A DNA stretch of 64,000 nt, from positions 1-64,000 of the forward strand of contig CAVTCR010000041.1 in assembly GCA_963733195.1 (NCBI GenBank), written 5' to 3'. Within the stretch, counting starts at the first letter, position 1, and each line of letters starts with the position of its first letter. This DNA comes from an uncultured delta proteobacterium (GTDB taxonomy: Bacteria; Desulfobacterota; Binatia; Bin18). The translations under genes were made by a program, and so were the position numbers. Under the pieces are notes generated by a model. The model was not told the origin of the DNA. It did not search any database and saw nothing but the letters and a program-made list of their open reading frames with translations. Positions 889 to 14,380 of the stretch are shown piece by piece.

Positions 889-1084
889 TCAAGCAACCTC
901 CACATCGGCCTAACGGTCCCGGTCACCGTTTGCCGCCCAACCGAGACCTTTCATATTTCCCGAACCGCAAGCGGGCGGCAATACGGTGCAGTGGATTGAT
1001 ACTCATCCAGGCCTCCTCGGCTGCGAGTGTGCAGCGGTAGGATGGCTGTATCCCAACAATCCATTCTACAAGGAGGAGACCTGG

Positions 1085-3796: not shown

Positions 3797-3894
3797 GCCG
3801 AACGCTCCCGCGCACCGCGAGCGGCCACACAGTGTCCTTTCAGGTTTGGCAGAAGCCCAACGTGGCCGCGATGCGGTGGCGCGGCGGGTTAGCA
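3797..3894 (-). other. attC site
   Basis: GCCGAAC...GTTAGCA with imperfect inverted repeat CCGCGCACCGCG-AGCGGCCAC...GTGGCCGC-GATGCGGTGGCGCGG. Confidence 0.88.
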
Positions 3895-4937
3895 CGCAAG
3901 TCTCGCTCTGGAAATCCAATCTGATACAAGCGTCCACTATTCTGGCCCGAAAACATTTTAACATCTGCTTCTTGATGCGATGATAAGCGATATACGCCAG
4001 ATAGCCGTTCGAAAAATGCAATACGTTTAATTCTTTTGGGGGCGGAGCGGTGTCGGGCTCTTCTAACGGCACTGGATCAATGTAACTCAGTCCTCTCCGA
4101 CTCAACGCTAACTTCCATTCTTTTTCTACCCATTCTGATCGCGCTGCCGACAGCGACGAAAATAGGTAGAACGCGTCCTTAGTGGGAACATGTCGCTGCA
4201 GTTTTTCTTGCCAGTTGTCTCCTGAACGCAACGAAAATACATCAAGAAATGTCCAGGTCGGGCGCTACCTTCTTCATGCCCTGTATTCGACAGAACCTCG
4301 TACTCGATTGTCGCTTGCATAGGAGGCGAAAGCTGTCTTGGGATAAAGGAGTAGAGCAGAACGGTCCGAAGATTTACGCAAGGACATGGTTAGATACGGA
4401 AACGAGAAAAGCACTTCGCGATTGTAAGACCCTGATATCCGATTACTGCTTTTCCAGCAAAGAAACCAAACTTAGCGTCGATAGGGACATGGATAATGAA
4501 CGAGGCGGTAGTGGGTACACCATCCCATACAAGCAATCGACGGGATCACGAATGTATAATTTTCAATTTCGATAGAGATAGTCAGTATTTCCCCTCTTGG
4601 TACCGACACACCTGTCTTTCTGCCTACTGTGACGTCCCGCCCAATCTCATGCGCGATAGCGATGACGGAAGAGTATTGATTTAGCAGGAATGCCCAAATA
4701 TCCAATATGAAAGTGGCGTCGCGAGTAATGGCTTGGGGTGCGAATGCAGCGAAATCAACGCTCTCGCGTGATGGTGCTGACCTGGGCGGTGCTGGCGATG
4801 ACATGTGGTCGTCGTAGTCAGGTGGTGCTGACGGCGGTGCTGGTAATGGCATGTCGCGATCGTACTCGATCGAGCGTTTCGCGATTCTTCGGAATAACCA
4901 TAGTGCTGTCAGAAGAGCCGCAAACAACGCGATACTA

Positions 4938-6054
4938 TACTTCACACGGGGAAGAATTGCGCTTTTGCAAAAAGCTGAAAGCGTAAGGTTAACAGCGAGT
5001 CCAGAGCAGTGCGATGGGTGGTCTGCGTTTGGGCTAAGCACTGAACAATGGCGGACTTGAATGCGGCGAAGTCCGCGTAATAAGTGGAGTAGAGGCACTG
5101 TTTTTTGACGAACTTCCAGAGCCGCTCAATGAGGTGGAGATTCGGGGAATAGGGCGGCAGAAAACATAACTCAAGGTGTAGGCTGGCGGCGAGGGTAAGG
5201 ACTTGGGCGCAACGTTGGTAGCGAGCATTGGCCAAGACCACGGTCAACGGGACACCGAGGTTGAGCGCCGCAAGGTGCCGCAAGAGGGCACAGACTTCCG
5301 TCGCGGTAATGTAGGTGTCGTTGGTGACCGTCACGAGTTCATGGGTGATCGCGTTGAGCGCGCCCAGCACCTGGAAGCGTTGCCGCCCCGCGGGGGCCCG
5401 CAGGAAGATGCGCGTCACGGACCAGAGGAAGCCGAGGAAGGGGGCTAACACGAAGTGCGCCGCATCGACAAAGAAGACGGTGCGCTGCCCCGCGCGGGCC
5501 TAGGCTAAGCGCGGCTCCAGCTCCTCCCCCAAGTAGCGCGCTTGCGCGTCGGAGTCGGCTTTGGCCGGGAGCATCCCGACCCGGCGACAGTGGAGATGGA
5601 GTTTTTTTCAGAAACTCTCGTACCTGCGTCTCACTGCGGTTGATGCCCGTCAGCGCTTCAATCGGGCTTTGCGCTTCTTTGATCGTCGCGGGCGGATGGG
5701 CGCGAAAGTACGCTTCCAACGCCGCGTAATGTTCCTGCCGGGCACTCTCCGGTCCCTGGATCGCGACTTCTTTCAATCGCTCGACGCCGCCCGCGAGATA
5801 GAGTTGGAAATACTCCCGCAGCGTGTTCTCGGTGCTGTTCACTCATTGCGCGATCTGCCCATGCGGTAGCCCATGGCTCTTCAGCCACAGCGCTTCCATC
5901 CGTCGTTGCACCAGCGGGAGCGGATGGCGATACCGCTCATAGTTCAGCTCCTCTAAAATCGCCGGGGTAAACTCCAGTGGCATGGTCATGCCCACACCTT
6001 AGCAAATGACAAACGCCCCGTCTCTAAAACCGCAATTCCTTCCCGTGGACAGTA
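4938..6054 (-). mobile_element. IS630 family element (transposase ~4942-5989 in several frames)
   Basis: TA duplication 4936-37/6055-56; TIRs TACTTCACACGGGAAGAATTGCG / rc TACTGTCCACGGGAAGGAATTGCG; FVDAAHF, LPPYSPNLHLIERLW; third catalytic Asp appears as Ala (VLANARY). Confidence 0.92.
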
Positions 6055-6078
6055 TAGCGGCAACTCCCAGATAATCTA

Positions 6079-7317
6079 AATCGGACCAGAAGAGATTGGC
6101 ACAGCGACGCACACGCTGATAGATCAAGAGTTGTGAGACTATTGCAACGATCAGCCAGGAGTTGCTGTGCCGAAAACCACGATAGTAGAGATTCCTTCTG
6201 CCGAGCAAGCCCGCATGCGGGCCGAATTACGCCGAGCCCGATATGGGTACTTGTTAGCCTTACATCTGCTGCTCCTGTGCGCCGCTGGGCGGACGCCGAG
6301 CGAAGTGGCTACCGTGCTCTTTTGTTCACGCTCCAGCGTGTACCGGATCGTGCGGGCGTACCGGGCTGGGACACTGCGCTTTGATGAGGCCAGCGAGCAC
6401 GCCCCGCAACAGCGCCGGCTGCGGCTGCTCACGCCGTCACTCAAACGCTCCGTACACGCCCTGCTCACGACCGCTCCCCGTGCATTCGGCTGGTGTCGTA
6501 CGCGGTGGAGCTGTGCCACGTTAGCGGTGGAAGTGCAGGTGCGCCGGGGGATTCGCGTATCCGCGGAGACCATGCGCCACTGGCTCCATGAACTAGGCTG
6601 GGCGTGGAAACGCGCGAAGGTGGTGGCCAAGGATGACGATCCACAACGGGTGGAGAAGTTAGCGCGCATTCGGCTGGCCTTCGAGCAACTGCGAGCAGGG
6701 ACGGCGCTGTTCTTTGCCGACGAGTTGGATATCAATCTCTTACCCAAGGTCGGCTATCAGTGGATGCCTAAGGGCGAACAAGTCGAAGTCATGACACCGG
6801 GCACCAACGAGAAGCGCTATCTGGCCGGAGCGCTCGACCTGACCACGGGGACCATCACCCATTGTGTGTGGTATCGCAAGCAGACCGGGCTCTTTCTTGA
6901 TCTGCTCCAGACGCTCGATCGGACACACCCCGCGCCGCTTTTCTCTCGGCTCACCGTCGTGGTCGATAACGCCAAGCTGCATAAGGCCCAGAAAGTCCAG
7001 CAGTGGCTCGCGGCGCATCCCCGCTTCGAACTCCTCTACTTACCCACTTACTGTCCGCGCGCCAATCCGATTGAGCGGGCCTTTGGCGATGTCCATGACA
7101 AATGTACCCGTAATCACACCCGCAAGCGCATGTGGCACCTGGTGCAGGATGTGCACCAGCCATCTGCGGGTCAATGGACCATGGCGCTATGCCCTCTCCG
7201 AGCTCTATTACACACCAGAGGTGACGGCTACGGTCGAGCCCTGCAGACGGCGGACAGTTCTCTTCCTGTGCTCTCACAACTTGCCGCCTGAGTGTACGAA
7301 TGTTGCGCGGTCCGATT
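6079..7317 (+). mobile_element. IS630 family element
   Basis: TA duplication 6077-78/7318-19; TIRs AATCGGACC/GGTCCGATT. Confidence 0.92.
6167..7291 (+). CDS. IS630 family transposase
   Basis: HTH, FADELD, VVDNAKLH, LPTYCPRANPIERAF. Confidence 0.93.
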   Translation: MPKTTIVEIPSAEQARMRAELRRARYGYLLALHLLLLCAAGRTPSEVATVLFCSRSSVYRIVRAYRAGTLRFDEASEHAPQQRRLRLLTPSLKRSVHALLTTAPRAFGWCRTRWSCATLAVEVQVRRGIRVSAETMRHWLHELGWAWKRAKVVAKDDDPQRVEKLARIRLAFEQLRAGTALFFADELDINLLPKVGYQWMPKGEQVEVMTPGTNEKRYLAGALDLTTGTITHCVWYRKQTGLFLDLLQTLDRTHPAPLFSRLTVVVDNAKLHKAQKVQQWLAAHPRFELLYLPTYCPRANPIERAFGDVHDKCTRNHTRKRMWHLVQDVHQPSAGQWTMALCPLRALLHTRGDGYGRALQTADSSLPVLSQLAA

Positions 7318-8161: not shown

Positions 8162-8200
8162 GCCTAACGCTCCCGCGCACCGCGAGCCGCCACGTTCCCC
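8162..8200 (-). other. attC site, only one arm recognisable
   Basis: GCCTAACGCTCCCGCGCACCGCGAGCCGCCAC is nearly identical to the arm at 3797; complementary arm not found. Confidence 0.65.
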
Positions 8201-8449
8201 TACGTTAAGATTCGTTATTTTTTCCCTTTGTTACCTTTATGACCCGGGTCGCCGGGACGATGCAGTATGATAGGAGTTTTCTCGCCTGGCTTCTTCAGGA
8301 TCACATGTCCCTTATCTTTCGTTTCCTCAAATTTGGGCTTTTGCTTGAATATGTCGAATAGTCCCATAACCATCTCCTTCTACAAGAGTAAAGTTTACCG
8401 TTCTTTACCTTCAAAACTCCCAACTCCTTGCTGCCGTAATCCAGGCATC

Positions 8450-8776
8450 CTACCACGAACAAACCACGGCTCGCGTGTTGGTTTGGCTTCTGAGCTGTTG
8501 GAGTCTGGGCTCACGGGGAAAAGCATCTCCCATAGGAAGGAAATACCCGTGAGAAACACAGGCTACCAACTCCCTTGAATGACCAAGTGCGAACAGGTCA
8601 TGCCGTAACAATCTTGCGCCAGATCCGACACCAGCACGATAGAAACTGTAGGCAGCAACGGCAATAGCGGCGGCAACTAAAATTCCCCCACCGGGAGTGT
8701 TATCACTTGAGGTGTCGGTCGTGAGGTTCATAGGGTTCATAGGGCTGACCATTGATCCACCAGCGTGCTCCATCAT
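8450..8776 (-). CDS. hypothetical cassette protein with a hydrophobic segment, probably frameshifted
   Basis: only sizeable cassette-oriented ORF between attCs 8162 and 8936; GGILVAAAIAVAAYSF. Confidence 0.35.
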   Translation of the reverse strand: MMEHAGGSMVSPMNPMNLTTDTSSDNTPGGGILVAAAIAVAAYSFYRAGVGSGARLLRHDLFALGHSRELVACVSHGYFLPMGDAFPREPRLQQLRSQTNTRAVVCSW

Positions 8777-8935
8777 GATATCCCTTGTATCCGAATGCTG
8801 CCCAGCAATTATCTTCCGGCTCGTACATATTCGTCTTCCTCCATCGCTACTCTATCGAATGTGGCTTCCCTTCTTCAAAACCTCTCGGCTTTGCGTCAAC
8901 CCTCCAATGGTTTCTCGTAGCCTCGGCCCCTGCGG

Positions 8936-9032
8936 GCCTAACGTATAGCGGTTGAGCTGCAGCGGGCAAGATGGCACCCTTCTCTCGTCCCTGGCCGCGC
9001 CCGCCCGCGGTCCGCTCCAACCGCGGTTGGAC
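8936..9032 (-). other. attC site closing the IS91-transposase cassette
   Basis: GCCTAAC...GTTGGAC; stem GCGGTTGAGCTG/CCGCTCCAACCGC. Confidence 0.82.
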
Positions 9033-9076
9033 AAGCGGCCTGCGGCGGCTGCCCTATGGGGATTTGAACCTTCCCC

Positions 9077-10244
9077 TCAGGCCGCCACTGGCCATGCTTC
9101 CACTCGCGGCGGTGCGCCAGAGCGTGGAAACACTTGGATGATCACCATCGGTTGTTGACACACCGGACACTGTTCCCAGGGGTGGTTGTCGGGGGACCGC
9201 TCTTCGGCTTCCCTCGGCTTCTCCTGTGTCGTATCCTTCTCCGGCAGTTGGTCGCGACAGTGCGCCAGCCTGGGCCGTTGCGTGCTGGCATACAGGCCCC
9301 ACGCGCGGACCATATGCACGCCCGGCAGCGGCACGTGCTCGCTCCAGCGGCGCAGAAATTCCTCTACGCTCAGCGTCAACTCCGCCTGGCGCGGCTGCCC
9401 GCTCGTCCAGCTCCCGATGATTGCCATAGCGAAACGTCACCTGCTGTCCGTCAAAGCGAGAAAGCGATGATCCTTGATCGGGCCGCCCCGCACGTAGCGC
9501 GCCAGATACTTCATCACGCCGCGGCCATGCGGATAGCGCTCGGCAATGCGGATATTCCATTGCTGCCGCGCCGCCGCGACCAGCACCGCCGCATGCCGTC
9601 GTCATCGAGGTGGGGCGGAAGCTGCAGCTGCCCGGTCAGCCACAACGCCTCGAGCGCCCCGAGCACTTTGCCCCGAAACAACGCCCGCACCACCGCCACC
9701 GGAAGCAGAAAGCCCGTCCGTACGGCGTGCCACTGGCCGTCGGCGTCAGGCCGCCGCCGCTGACCAGGCAGTGCACGTGCGGATGTAACGTGAACGTGCG
9801 GCCCCACGTATGCAACGCCGCTAACATCCCCGGCGTCGCGCCCAACCATTTCGGGATCGCCCAACAACGTGAGCAACGTCTCCCGCACACTGCCGAACAG
9901 CACCTCCGTCAGTTGCTCTCGGTTCCACTGCCACAGCTCATGCAATTCACTGGGCAGGGTAAAGATCACGTGAAAGTGATCGGTGGGGAGAAGCTGCGCT
10001 GCCAGCCGTCGAGCCACTGGCTAATCCGGTGGCGTACAACAGCGCGGACAGGCCCGATGGCGGCAGGAGTTGTACCAGATCTCCGTGACGTGGCCCTGCG
10101 GACAGCGCCGCACGTGCCCACCCAACGCCGCCGTCCGGCACGCATCACTGCGTGTGCGGCCCTCCAGACCCGGCGCGGCACCTTGTGCGCCTCGGTATAC
10201 GTCGCAAAGCTGGTCTGGAGAATGTCTTGTAACGTCACGGCCAT
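9077..10244 (-). CDS. IS91 family (Y2, HUH) transposase with zinc-binding domain, several frameshifts
   Basis: CRTAALGGH, YNSCRHRACPRC, HVIFTLP, LHTWGRTFTLHPHVHCLVSGGGL, YLARYVRG, C-terminal CPVC. Confidence 0.9.
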
Positions 10245-10297
10245 AGCACAAACTCAGAGTGACTTCACGATCTGTTTGTGGACGCCTCGTCCGCTAT

Positions 10298-10350
10298 GTC
10301 CAACTACAATTGAACAGCACAACTTGTTTCTGCTAATGGAAACAAGTTGC
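10298..10350 (-). other. putative attI site
   Basis: GTTGGAC core (10304..10298) matches the GTCCAAC inverse core of attC 9032..9026; no attC stem upstream, only AT-rich repeats and then intI. Confidence 0.7.
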
Positions 10351-10457
10351 TATTCCAATAAACAAGTTTGCTAGATCTATAAACCACCAAGTTTCTACAT
10401 CTACAAACACTCAGGTTGCTACATGTAGAAACTTTACAAACATTGACTGACCTCCCT

Positions 10458-10487
10458 TCTATAAACCTTATAAACCTTGCGTGTCAA
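10458..10487 (-). promoter_or_regulatory. candidate cassette promoter (Pc)
   Basis: TTGACA-N18-TATAGA on the minus strand facing attI. Confidence 0.4.
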
Positions 10488-10579
10488 TGTTTCGCGCTTG
10501 TAATCCAAGGGCCAGGACGTGTTCATAGCGGACTTCCCATAGCCCCCGTTGCGGACTCCACCGACCACCCTCGTTGTTT

Positions 10580-10970
10580 CCTAAACTGTCGGAGGGCTGG
10601 AACCTCGACGCCGCGGTTAGGACATGGGTGTAAATATGTCGTACCAGGTCTTGATCAGTAATTCTTTATCGTGTATAGGCAGGTTGGCGATGAGCCAGGT
10701 GCACGCCCTGCACAGCACTGAGTAAGCTACGCACTTCCTGTTGGGTGAGCACAGTGGGAAGCCGCTGAGAATGTTTGGCTGGGACAATGTTATCGAGCCA
10801 GCCCAGCTCCTGCGCTAGCACTTCTCGGTACAAGAAGAGCAGGGCGTGTAACGCCTGGTTCTGTGTGGCCGCGCTGACGTGCCGGTCTACAGCAAGAAAG
10901 GTGAGAAATTGCTCGACTTCTTCTTTCCCCATCTCACGAGACGGTGTGGAGCAACAGCGAAAACGGTAAA
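10580..10970 (-). pseudogene. intI: integron integrase remnant, central catalytic region deleted
   Basis: EMGKEEVEQFLTFLAVDRHVSAATQNQALHALLFLYREVL...RLPTVLTQQEV, then almost directly a degenerate ELL..IYTHVL..SP C-terminus. Confidence 0.85.
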
Positions 10971-11014: not shown

Positions 11015-12273
11015 CTACGCTTCAATCAGCGCTTGATAATTCATCTTCTTAGGAATCTCCCCCAGGAGGGTAAGAGCCCGGGATTCATTCCCAAGGCATC
11101 GCGCCGCTAGTCCGTGCACCTCTTCGAGAGTCACGCGTTCGACATCCGCAGCAACCTCAGCAATAGGAATATCGCGACGGAAATAAATCTCACACCGCGC
11201 CAATCGATTCATGCGTGATTCACTCGTCTCGAGGCCGAGCAATAACCCGCCTTTGGCGTGGCCTTTGGCGCGACGAAGCTCCTCTGCAGAGATTCCCTCT
11301 CTCGCAATGTCACGTAAAATCGCACACGATAGCTCAACAACTTGCGGCTATCGATTCAGCACTGGTGGCAGCGTACACGCCAAGATAGCCAGAGTCGCGA
11401 TAGCTGGAGAGAAATGAAGTCACGTCATACACCAATCCACGACGTTCACGAATTTCCTGGAAAGAGCCGAGAACTCATGCCGCCACCAAGCGCAGTATGT
11501 AACAAATAGGCGGCATACCACTCAGTGTCGTGCACCGACACACAGGGGATGCCTAAGCAAAGATGGGTTTGTTCAAGATCACGCGGATAGCGATAGATCC
11601 CAGGATGTGAGACTGGAGGAACCTCGTCGATGCGGATCGCTTTTCCGTGCAGCCGGGTAAGCGATGGAGCAACGAGGTCCTCAAGTTGTGCGTGCGGAGC
11701 GCTCCCCGCCATCGCCACAAAGATACGATCCGGACGATAGCGTTGGTCAAGGTAGCGGAGAAAATCACTTCGCTGAAAACGAGAAACTGCCTCCGCGGTG
11801 CCAGAAATAGGACGGCCCAGCGGATGCTCAGGCCAAAAGTCGAGATGGAACAAGTCGTGAATCAGATCGTCTGGTGTGTCCTCGACTTGCGCAATCTCTT
11901 GGCAGATGACCGAACGCTCACGTTCGATTTCTTCTTCAGCAAACTGTGACTGAAGGAAAACATCCGTCAGTAAATCGAGTGCCAGCGGTAAGTGTTCCGT
12001 CAGCACTTTGGCGTAGTAGCAAGTGTATTCTTTGGAGGTAAAGGCATCGAGCACACCGCCAACCGCATCGATTTCCTCAGCGATGTCGGCGGCAGTGCGC
12101 CGCTGGGTACCTTTAAAGAAGAGATGCTCAAGAAAATGGGCGATGCCGTTTTCTTCTGGTCTTTCGTCACGCGAGCCGTTCTCGACCCAGATCCCCACGG
12201 TTACCGAGGGTGAACCTGTCATTTCTTCTGATAACAGGCGCACTCCATTGTCGAGTACCGTGCGGTGGGTCAT
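11015..12273 (-). CDS. M16 family zinc metallopeptidase (frameshifted)
   Basis: HFLEH motif, NA/DAFTSKEYT, LGGGMSSRLF; typical position after pnp. Confidence 0.9.
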
Positions 12274-12277
12274 CTCT

Positions 12278-14380
12278 CTAGCTTTCGCTCGCTGCGCTTT
12301 CTGCCTGCATCGCTTCGCGGTGACTGAGACGAATCTTGCCCTGGCGATCAATTTCCAGGACCTTCACCATGATTTCGTCTCCCTCTTCTACGACATCCGT
12401 TACTTTGCGAATGCGTCCGCCACCGCCAAGCTGAGAAATATGCACGAGACCATCTGTTCCTGGCAGGATTTCCACAAACGCACCGAAATCGACCACCTTA
12501 CGCACAGTGCCTTTGTAAATCTTGCCGATTTCGGCTTCTGCAGTCACCCGATTAATCTTATCCACTGCCTTGCTCATTGAATCGCCATCGGCAGAAGCGA
12601 CATACACGGTCCCATCGTCTTCGACGTCGATCTTCACTCCGGTTTCTTCGATGATCGAGCGAATCATCTTCCCACCTGGGCCGATGAGGTCACGGATTTT
12701 GTCTGGTCTTACTTTTAAGGTCAGAATCCGTGGTGCATGTTCCGACGCCTCTAAACGCGGCTCAGCTAACACCTTGGTCATTTGCTCAAGAATAAACAGC
12801 CGGCCCTCGCGCGCTTGATAGAGCGCTTGCTGCATAATCTCTTTGGTGACTCCGGCAATCTTGATATCCATTTGCAGCGCCGTGATTCCGCCTGCAGTGC
12901 CAGCGACTTTGAAATCCATGTCGCCAAGGTGGTCTTCATCTCCCAAGATATCACTCAAGATACGAACCTCTTCGCCTTCCTTGATAAGCCCCATGGCAAT
13001 CCCTGCCACCGGAGCTTTGATCGGTACGCCTGCGTCCATCAACGAGAGCGTACCACCACACACGGTTGCCATCGAAGAAGAACCATTCGATTCCAATACC
13101 TCCGCCACCACACGAATGGTGTAAGGAAATTCGCTTCCTTCCGGCATAACGGCTTGTACTGCACGTTCCGCTAATGCACCGTGACCAATCTCACGTCGCC
13201 CAGGACCACGCAGCGGCCGCGCTTCACCAACACTGAATGGCGGAAAGTTGTAATGCAGCATGAACCGCTTAAACTGCTCGCCAATTAAGGCGTCTACTTT
13301 CTGCTCATCCGAAGACGTGCCGAGCGTCGCAATAACTAAAGCCTGGGTTTCACCGCGTGTGAATAGTGCCGAGCCATGGGTACGGGGCAGTACGCCAACT
13401 TCACAGGTAATCGGACGGATGTCGGTCAGTCCACGTCCATCAACGCGGCGACTCTCACGGATCACCAACGTGCGCAGTGTTTCACTTTCCAGTTCTTCGA
13501 GCGCAGCACCCACTTCTTTCTCACGTCCGACGTAGTCTTCTGCAAGTGCAGTCTTCACTTCCTTTTTGACCCCAGCAACAGCGTCGTAACGCTCGTGCTT
13601 GCCGGTCACGGTCAGGGCTGTACGAATTTTCTCTGCGGCAAGCGTACGAACTCGGCTGGCCAGAGTCGTATCGGCAGGAACCGCGACAAACTCTCGCTTG
13701 GGTTTCCCAGCAATTCGGGCAAGCTCATCCTGTGCATCGAGAATCGGTTTGATCGCATCCTGCGCGAGGAATAAAGCTTCAAGCATGTCTTCTTCAGAGG
13801 CTGCCTTCGCGCCGCCTTCGACCATGATAATCGCATCCCGCCCCGCAGCGACAAAGAGATTAATATCGCTCTGATCAAACTGGCTCTGTAAAGGATTCAC
13901 TGTGAGTGCGCCGCGAAGGCGACCGATGCGTACACCGGCGATCGGCCCACGAAACGGGATATCGGAGACTTGTAACGCCGCAGATGCGCCAATCATCGCC
14001 ACAGTATCAGCATCGTTCTCTCGATCTACCGAAAGCACCGACGCCACCACCTGTGTTTCACAGAAAAATCCATCCGGAAAAAGTGGACGCAGTGCACGAT
14101 CAACAAGGCGAGAGGTCAGAATCTCTCGCTCCGGCGGACGTCCTTCGCGTTTGAAGAACCCACCGGGAATCTTTCCTGCGGCATAGGTACGTTCCTGATA
14201 GTCAACAGTCAAGGGAAAGAAATCGGTTCCTTCCCGAGGAGAACTGGATGCAACGACGGTAACGAGAACGACGGTTTCACCGTACGATACAACTGCTGCG
14301 CCCCCGGCCTGTTTCGCCATACGACCAGTCTCAATCGACAACGGTCGCCCGTAAAATTCCATTTCAATCTTTTTATACAT
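12278..14380 (-). CDS. pnp: polyribonucleotide nucleotidyltransferase
   Basis: [37 protein letters not shown] and S1 domains. Confidence 0.99.

Follow-up and report, generated by a model that had tools for sequence, protein, structure and literature searches.

Integron gene cassettes carry one open reading frame (ORF) followed by an attC recombination site with R'', L'', L' and R' boxes and an extra base in L''; they begin with bases that complement their own R'', and they sit behind an attI site or the attCs of other cassettes, in arrays with changing neighbours. They are usually seen as passive cargo of the integron integrase IntI, and elements of the IS91 and ISCR groups as independent rolling-circle transposons that merely lie near integrons. 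Here we describe, in a 64,000-nucleotide stretch of DNA from an uncultured delta proteobacterium (assembly GCA_963733195.1, contig CAVTCR010000041.1, positions 1 to 64,000 of the forward strand; hereafter the window), a 1.37-kb unit that shares these cassette features and carries an IS91-family transposase gene, the family to which it belongs being, as we read it, both at once. Cargo of this kind, from a transposase family with its own single-strand mobility chemistry, sets the unit apart from ordinary cassettes, as do a conserved 5' palindrome, about 14 nucleotides of complementarity between its ends, a slightly longer L'-R' spacer and a strong bias towards first position.

In the available part of PMC13181058, the terIS end of IS91-family elements lies upstream of tnpA and has a single subterminal palindrome next to the tetranucleotide that is cleaved (GTTC in IS801 and IS1294), while the oriIS end lies downstream and has one or two palindromes abutting a GTTC/CTTG target, which is not duplicated. 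To the extent covered by that source, the unit resembles IS91, IS801 and IS1294 (HUH-Y2) in its transposase family, in the succession of a palindromic 5' end, tnpA and a two-palindrome 3' end, and in GTT-type tetranucleotides at both ends without target duplication; it differs from them in being inserted only at integron crossovers, in carrying a full attC of the local family at its 3' end, and in showing neither near-identical copies within the genome nor read-through ends. ISCR1 in complex class 1 integrons is likewise an IS91-like rolling-circle element physically tied to integrons, but, unlike the unit, it is no cassette, is located past the 3' conserved segment, and has neither attC nor terIS (PMC8876359, whose accessible part treats only ISCR1).

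The unit leaves neighbouring attCs whole and fills a normal cassette slot, unlike IS1111-attC insertion sequences and group IIC-attC introns (both mentioned in PMC9229058). The latter two interrupt attCs, and use DDE or retro-homing chemistry. What they share with the unit is that they are mobile elements specialised on integron recombination sites. Cassettes with embedded IS3 and IS911 are mentioned in the accessible part of PMC11023631. Our full-text literature searches turned up no account of integron cassettes built around IS91-type transposases, although the cassette lists of integron surveys could hold such entries unseen.

Anatomy of the unit and its attC

The unit, the attI and intI sequences next to it and the other members of its array all lie on the minus strand of the window. 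Read 5' to 3' on that strand, the whole unit (8936..10304, both core heptamers included) runs from GTTGGAC (10304..10298) through a 60-nucleotide leader, the transposase gene (10244..9077), GTCCAAC (9032..9026) and an imperfect palindrome to GTTAGGC (8942..8936), and dozens of metagenome loci with unrelated flanks have the same boundaries. From crossover to crossover the cassette proper spans 10303..8942 (1362 nucleotides), the G of the 5' core being supplied by attI and TTGGAC by the cassette. This core (10298..10304) and the R'' of the same cassette complement each other exactly. A subterminal palindrome, GCGGACGAGGCGTCCAC (10278..10294), conserved in 35 aligned copies, occupies the position of an IS91 terIS palindrome, and a small palindrome, GGGGA...TCCCC (9057..9075), read from the sequence and kept in all three copies of the source genome, lies right behind the stop codon.

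The last 97 nucleotides (8936..9032) were delimited as an attC by folding and by covariation in a 40-copy alignment. R'' (RYYYAAC; here GTCCAAC, 9032..9026) and R' (GTTRRRY; here GTTAGGC, 8942..8936) bound an imperfect palindrome, as the definition of attC requires, with L'' at 9021..9012 carrying one extra base, L' at 8958..8951 and a spacer of 8 nucleotides before R'. The usual length of attCs is roughly 57–141 nucleotides. A strict scan of both strands of the whole window, combining a regular expression with folding for RYYYAAC...GTTRRRY hairpins, returned this site as its sole match; sites with a degenerate R'' (3797-3895 and 908-1005) escape such a scan.

Covariation supports the fold. 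In the 40-copy alignment the L stem shows compensatory change in 13 of its 20 pairs, with 91.9% of cells paired; none of 500 shuffles matched the observed covariation score, and all slid controls were less than 40% paired. The R''/R' helix is 82% paired, a mismatch being expected where R' bases come from the neighbouring cassette. Across the family the layout is R'', 4–5 nucleotides, GTTGGAGCGG or ATTCGAGCGG with one extra base, CCGCTCAAC, 8 nucleotides and GTT. Neighbouring cassettes' attCs (for example GTTGCAGCGGAC...CCGCTGAAC) share this layout, polarity of the extra base included, except for a last spacer of 6–7 nucleotides. R'' and the 5' core also change together: most copies have GTCCAAC with GTTGGAC, four (L075, L076, L084 and L085) have GTTCAAC with GTTGAAC, and L080 has GTGCAAC with GTTGCAC. 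By its boxes, stem pairing, extra base and R'' complementarity, the 3' site is, as far as sequence can define one, an attC. A further complementarity of about 14 nucleotides links the 5' end of the unit to the region ahead of R'', and is conserved outside the coding sequence.

The leader (10245-10277) contains an inverted repeat, CACAAAC ... GTTTGTG, that ends 4 nucleotides ahead of the start codon, and within it a short palindrome, GTGAAGTCAC; both are partly conserved among relatives and may form a control element.

A family of copies at integron crossovers

Relatives were sought with P0001, the product of an intact paralogue on contig C47 of the same genome. At E <= 0.001, 5139 of 8000 scored candidates were related to it, the best 120 of which are 58–84% identical and lie mostly on contigs of 1–7 kb; a metagenome scan gave 79 loci, and soil and rhizosphere runs hold parts of the cassette family. 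The family is common enough in the searched metagenome collections for experimental material to be easy to find. Among 401 genomes of the phylum, relatives outside the source genome are at most 45% identical, and a search of genome contigs returned five loci, four of them distant two-gene elements. The closest named plasmid match, Thiolapillus pTBH10, is 43% identical, and its context is uninformative.

The edges of the unit recur in these loci. In a BLAST comparison, the match to the window opens at 10304-10307 for 24 metagenome loci and closes at 8935-8940 for 18; ten loci, which have the attI type or the attI end in common with it, match from further upstream. At 59% protein identity or above, a 5' core of the form [G/A]TTG[G/A/C]AC lies at the expected distance in all 39 assessable loci, and a family profile finds the 3' attC in 34 of 36, the two misses being L082, where the site is present with a mutated R', and L065, where it is lost behind R''.

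The sequences on either side of these edges vary. In 30 compared 5' junctions, unrelated upstream flanks meet at G↓TTGGAC (one ATTGGAC and one GTTGAAC). By our own classification, the upstream flank is of attC type in 18 loci and repeat-rich and attI-like in 28, the latter of at least seven unlike types, so classified that about 60% of junctions are at attI. Twelve of the 18 attC flanks fold as hairpins of 57–101 nucleotides with an RYYYAAC-like R'' and a hybrid R', G↓TTGGAC; three more (L075, L080, L085) were read by eye, not folded. An intI adjoins ten of the 28 attI-like flanks (the window, contig C1 of the source genome, L055, L064, L070, L072, L084, L087, L088 and L100), and is oriented as the cassette in nine, L055 being divergent. 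At the 3' junction, ...TATACGTT has at least 12 continuations (TTAGGC, TTAGCC, TTCGGC, TTGGAC, TTAGAT, TTATGC and others), with GTT kept in 37 of 40 aligned copies.

Exchange of neighbours is visible among close copies. On a 45-copy tree the flank types are interspersed, with 21 changes (minimum possible 10, shuffled mean 25.9). L084 and L085 are 99.85% identical for 3.3 kb from the 5' boundary, and upstream of it L084 has intI and attI and L085 the attC of another cassette, as if a cassette had entered at attI ahead of the unit. Two other pairs, L054/L055 (98.6%) and L075/L076 (99.6%), are identical to that degree across the upstream flank and the unit, and diverge within a few bases of the 3' crossover. 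In L091 and L092 a second IS91-like cassette follows directly behind the unit (L092:681-742, 2040-2101; L091:2190-2327).

Taken together, these results leave us highly confident that, structurally, the unit is a genuine integron gene cassette. The first-pass annotation, made from the letters of the window alone, had proposed a discrete cassette with an attC-bounded gene, in first position at an attI beside a decayed intI. Its positions for the two core sites proved exact when the sequence was read again; the cassette is now established far beyond chance, with similarity edges recurring at the same positions in metagenome loci, and the first position is borne out by intI profile matches, by comparison of attIs and by the junctions. 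The complementarity of R'' and 5' core, taken there as the signature of a circular junction, now stands on covarying heptamer pairs instead of one instance. A family mostly lacking attC had been named as the outcome that would speak against the proposal, and the presence of attC in nearly all close relatives favours the cassette.

Some loci depart from the general pattern. The last 62 nucleotides of the L092 contig repeat 681-742 exactly, with a period of 1359 nucleotides, which could mean that the copy is tandem or circular, or that the assembly looped. In L047 (1150-1230), 14 nucleotides like the end of an attI (..CCATAGAATTAGTA) separate the element from a complete attC (R' GTTGAAA), and it looks as if a piece of attI had travelled with the element or a secondary site had been used. 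An attI type with TAGATGG repeats (L064, L087, L088) has an interval of about 515–536 nucleotides from the intI stop codon to the crossover, compared with 168–278 in the other types, and something else may lie inside it. Of 24 Logan-contig runs (word share at most 0.33), the four that were compared with the element showed no cassette-circle joint; this speaks neither for nor against circles, because contigs drop rare forms and the query copy is foreign to the samples.

The transposase and the movement of the unit

The gene in the window is a pseudogene (9077..10244), recognised from Pfam matches on ORF pieces and from an indel map: PF14319 (Zn_Tnp_IS91) and PF04986 (Y2_Tnp, in three parts) are spread over four separate pieces, and the gene is split into at least four frames by at least eight frameshifting one- or two-base indels relative to its intact C47 paralogue. 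None of the indels falls in a homopolymer run of that alignment, and the stops fall inside the protein match. There is accordingly no intact transposase ORF of the kind first annotated here, and the suggestion that the window enzyme replaces the decayed intI or moves cassettes fails with the gene. The window copy is an inert fossil, its transposase gene and intI both having decayed after integration.

Sequencing error as the cause of the frameshifts was rejected, since adjacent genes of 700 and 311 codons are intact and the indels lie outside homopolymers, with the caveat that a split M16 peptidase gene next door leaves local decay and local assembly quality not fully separable. That gene (11015-12351), which borders the intI remnant, comprises a 301-amino-acid piece with both Pfam domains and a 75-amino-acid tail in another frame, through either local decay or lower sequence quality at this place.

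Elsewhere in the family the gene has been kept. P0001 (390 amino acids) scores 358 bits against NF033538 (cut-off 125), and both the Zn-binding and the Y2 HUH domain of an IS91 transposase are present, in this protein by that model and in the window pieces by Pfam. In a 20-sequence alignment H90 of the HFH motif is invariant and H92 nearly so, and Y247 and Y251 are invariant; we take these four to be the catalytic residues. An open frame of at least 375 codons is present in 30 of 35 full-length metagenome copies (ATA being the first codon in three of the 30), and pairwise ratios of nonsynonymous to synonymous substitution (dN/dS) have a median of 0.18 (range 0.10–0.40, median dS 1.1; 323 pairs of 26 copies), which indicates that the transposase of the cassette family is under purifying selection. 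In one RNA run (X18), fragments match portions of the gene and of the attI in relatives; these could stem from DNA carry-over, and we make no claim of expression.

This constraint bears on whether the transposase is a passenger, moved by IntI and acting elsewhere or domesticated. Cassettes commonly carry genes unrelated to their own mobility, and the cassette structure of the unit is complete without the transposase. A passenger without a role would decay, yet most copies are open at a dS of about 1.1; moreover, conservation reaches beyond the coding sequence to the 5' palindrome and the extended end complementarity, the share of junctions at attI is above expectation for a random array cassette, and no separate partner ends for the enzyme were found. 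We regard passive carriage as improbable. That selection maintains the transposase tells us that it matters; its role in spread is inferred.

More distant relatives bring a recombinase of their own. Transposases 35–45% identical to P0001 belong to units of about 2.5 kb, found repeatedly in the same and in different genomes, in all of which a tyrosine recombinase of 285–306 amino acids lies upstream of tnpA; this recombinase matches the integron-integrase model in two stretches, with 205–211 bits where the cut-off is 265. In the pair of units that is best resolved, the 5' end reads GTTGAAC... and the 3' end GTCCAAC-hairpin-GTTAGGC. These two-gene elements resemble the window unit in their homologous transposases, in the design of their ends and in the link to IntI-like recombinases. 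They differ in that their 5' boundary lies upstream of the recombinase, whereas that of the window cassette lies between attI and tnpA: the window unit holds the transposase only, and the adjoining recombinase is a true intI outside it, beyond attI. Comparable IS91 members with an upstream tyrosine recombinase or integrase, such as ISShvi3, are listed in ISfinder. The arrangement suggests that a tyrosine recombinase is needed, in cis or from the host integron. The source genome has one two-gene unit, apparently degenerate (C66:42601-45693; L005), in which an IntI-like recombinase (33–42% identical to the IntI of contig C33) is followed by an IS91-like transposase (37–44% identical to P0001) that matches in two pieces.

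We think it more probable than not that IntI performs the integration, because many unlike attIs are joined at the exact crossover, the attC is of the local family, and relatives carry an IntI-like enzyme. The L-box layout equals that of neighbouring attCs, and for this reason the same integron integrases should read the element's attC.

The unit could instead be a self-sufficient IS91-type insertion sequence that targets integrons, the HUH enzyme nicking at GTT by way of hairpins, with the attC-like end as oriIS, the 5' palindrome as terIS, and IntI unneeded; insertion into the GTT of a single-stranded attC or attI would then mimic cassette junctions. The first-pass annotation had recognised no IS91 ends, a statement that finds no support: a 5' palindrome beside GTTG, two 3' palindromes and flanking GTTR fit the layout of terIS, oriIS and tetranucleotide. 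The 5' palindrome lies 10 nucleotides inside the 5' end, next to GTTG, with weak covariation (two cells changed on both sides). Of the 3' palindromes, one is the small palindrome by the stop codon and the other is the stem of the attC, and the same 3' sequence reads equally well as attC plus R'. Ends of this layout, without target duplication, are those of IS91, IS801 and IS1294 (in the available part of PMC13181058). The protein is an IS91 transposase under purifying selection, the element persists next to dead intI genes, and two IS91-like cassettes stand in direct tandem in L091 and L092. Yet every assessable insertion occupies exactly the IntI crossover, in many attCs and in attIs of at least seven unlike types, and none lies elsewhere; this exclusive location counts against tetranucleotide targeting because such a target would be struck genome-wide, and the insertions throughout replicons that are a hallmark of IS91 were not seen among the assessable copies. 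The attI sites, moreover, are not hairpins, the relatives carry an IntI-like recombinase, and no read-through end occurs in the 39 close copies, every one of which has its 5' core in place. Near-identical copies within the genome are lacking too: the three present are 80–85% alike, and therefore tell of no recent jumping there. A self-sufficient insertion sequence, the main alternative, appears to us rather unlikely.

Several observations weigh against integration of the unit as a cassette by IntI. Its ends fit IS91 anatomy as well, as just described. The complementarity of R'' and 5' core is off by one base in L070, L071, L079 and L082, and the L'-R' spacer has 8 nucleotides, against 6–7 in neighbouring attCs. 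Junction sequence by itself would not separate IntI from an HUH enzyme cutting at the same GTT, and, because GTT stands at both ends, the junctions have no power to tell a G↓TT cut from a cut before the G; the divergence of L076 from L075 right after ...TATACG favours a cut behind the G. In the source genome the attIs of the window and C47 copies have diverged about as much as the element itself (85%, one BLAST segment), and these two copies may have been inherited or duplicated as a block of intI, attI and cassette, not inserted separately. Finally, the intI beside the element is inactivated in all four fully judgeable cases (window 10582-10938; C1:40645-40977, L003/L018; L055:332-663; L072:1804-2772), as remnants in the window, C1 and L055 and through one in-frame TAG (2047-2049) in L072. 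The cassette may persist in first position only where IntI is dead, the number of cases being small.

With these points weighed, the explanation that we favour, with moderate confidence, is that of an IS91-transposase cassette of an old and widespread family, integrated by IntI and helped to spread by its HUH enzyme. Members of the family would enter and leave integrons at the G↓TT crossover, behind attI or the attC of another cassette, by means of their own attC. The window copy would have entered a chromosomal integron, with intI and cassettes in the same orientation, at its attI; the intI and the transposase gene decayed later.

Within this explanation, copy-out by the HUH enzyme followed by paste-in by the integron integrase, that is, two-enzyme replicative cassettes, is a tentative proposal. 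The transposase would start rolling-circle synthesis at the attC-like 3' end and free single-stranded circles of the cassette strand, and the integrase, the host's or the one on board in two-gene relatives, would paste the folded attC into an attI or attC. Such circles would fit because the attC substrate of IntI is single-stranded. Read-through of the 5' terminator would carry upstream genes along with the attC. Cooperation of the two enzymes would amount to a new mode of mobility, HUH copy-out and tyrosine-recombinase paste-in on folded single strands, and would give a testable handle on two old questions, the origin of cassettes and the movement of integron platforms; read-through, if it occurs, would be a concrete route to new integron cassettes and to the movement of whole intI-attI platforms.

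A wider activity, the second option of the first-pass annotation, can also be imagined: attC hairpins belonging to other cassettes would serve the HUH enzyme as origin and terminator, and ordinary cassettes would be mobilised without IntI. Neighbouring attCs share the L'' motif (..AGCGGAC) and the layout, and a reader of one could read others; against this, the enzyme in the window is dead, and the element alone has the 5' palindrome and the extended end complementarity. We consider it very improbable.

The integron locus and other copies in the genome

Immediately upstream of the unit, 10305..10579 is an attI region with repeated AACTTGTT/AAACAAGTT-type motifs, common to C47 and found elsewhere with other cassettes. 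Its inclusion in the element was rejected, as the region occurs with other cassettes and is absent from most relatives. Contig C9 and a contig from run X1 have the same attI type, each with a cassette other than the unit starting at the same GTT, which places the region outside the element, as an attI. Beyond it lies an intI remnant of 83 residues (10690..10938), on the same strand as the cassettes, which matches positions 39-121 of TIGR02249 (88.8 bits, and 89.8 bits in a second profile scan) and Phage_int_SAM_4. The last 35 residues of intI may be represented at 10582..10659 by a weak tblastn match (37% identity, E 0.87); this would, if real, be the C-terminal end of intI, and hence point to an internal deletion.

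Downstream, a second cassette (8162..8935) with small ORFs without a Pfam match ends in a half attC (8193..8162, R' GTTAGGC). Further array attCs lie at 3797..3895 (repeat family D1 and fold) and 908..1005 (repeat and fold), both with a degenerate R''. The array is broken by two IS630-like (DDE_3) transposase genes (4942-7291), one of which is broken into different frames.

The assembly (87 contigs, 6.9 Mb) contains three copies of the element, in the window, on C47 and on C1. The C47 copy, with its open gene, is 85% identical over window positions 8936-10579; the degenerate C1 copy is 80% identical over 8952-10352, and an array with two clear attCs follows downstream of it. Remnants of intI adjoin the window and C1 copies, and at the end of the C47 contig lies sequence that shares 77% identity with the window remnant.

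Integrons in which intI is oriented like the cassettes are a known group. The one intact integron integrase of the genome, on C33 (477 bits, cut-off 265), belongs to a locus of this layout, as at the window locus, with the intI stop codon, five GATATAC-type repeats and GTTAGGT in succession, and cassettes oriented as intI. On C9 (L004, 179507-179605), the attI of the window type is an orphan without an adjacent intI; upstream of it lies a gene judged by eye to be CoA-transferase-like, and downstream a cassette with a PIN-domain toxin and a ribbon-helix-helix antitoxin.

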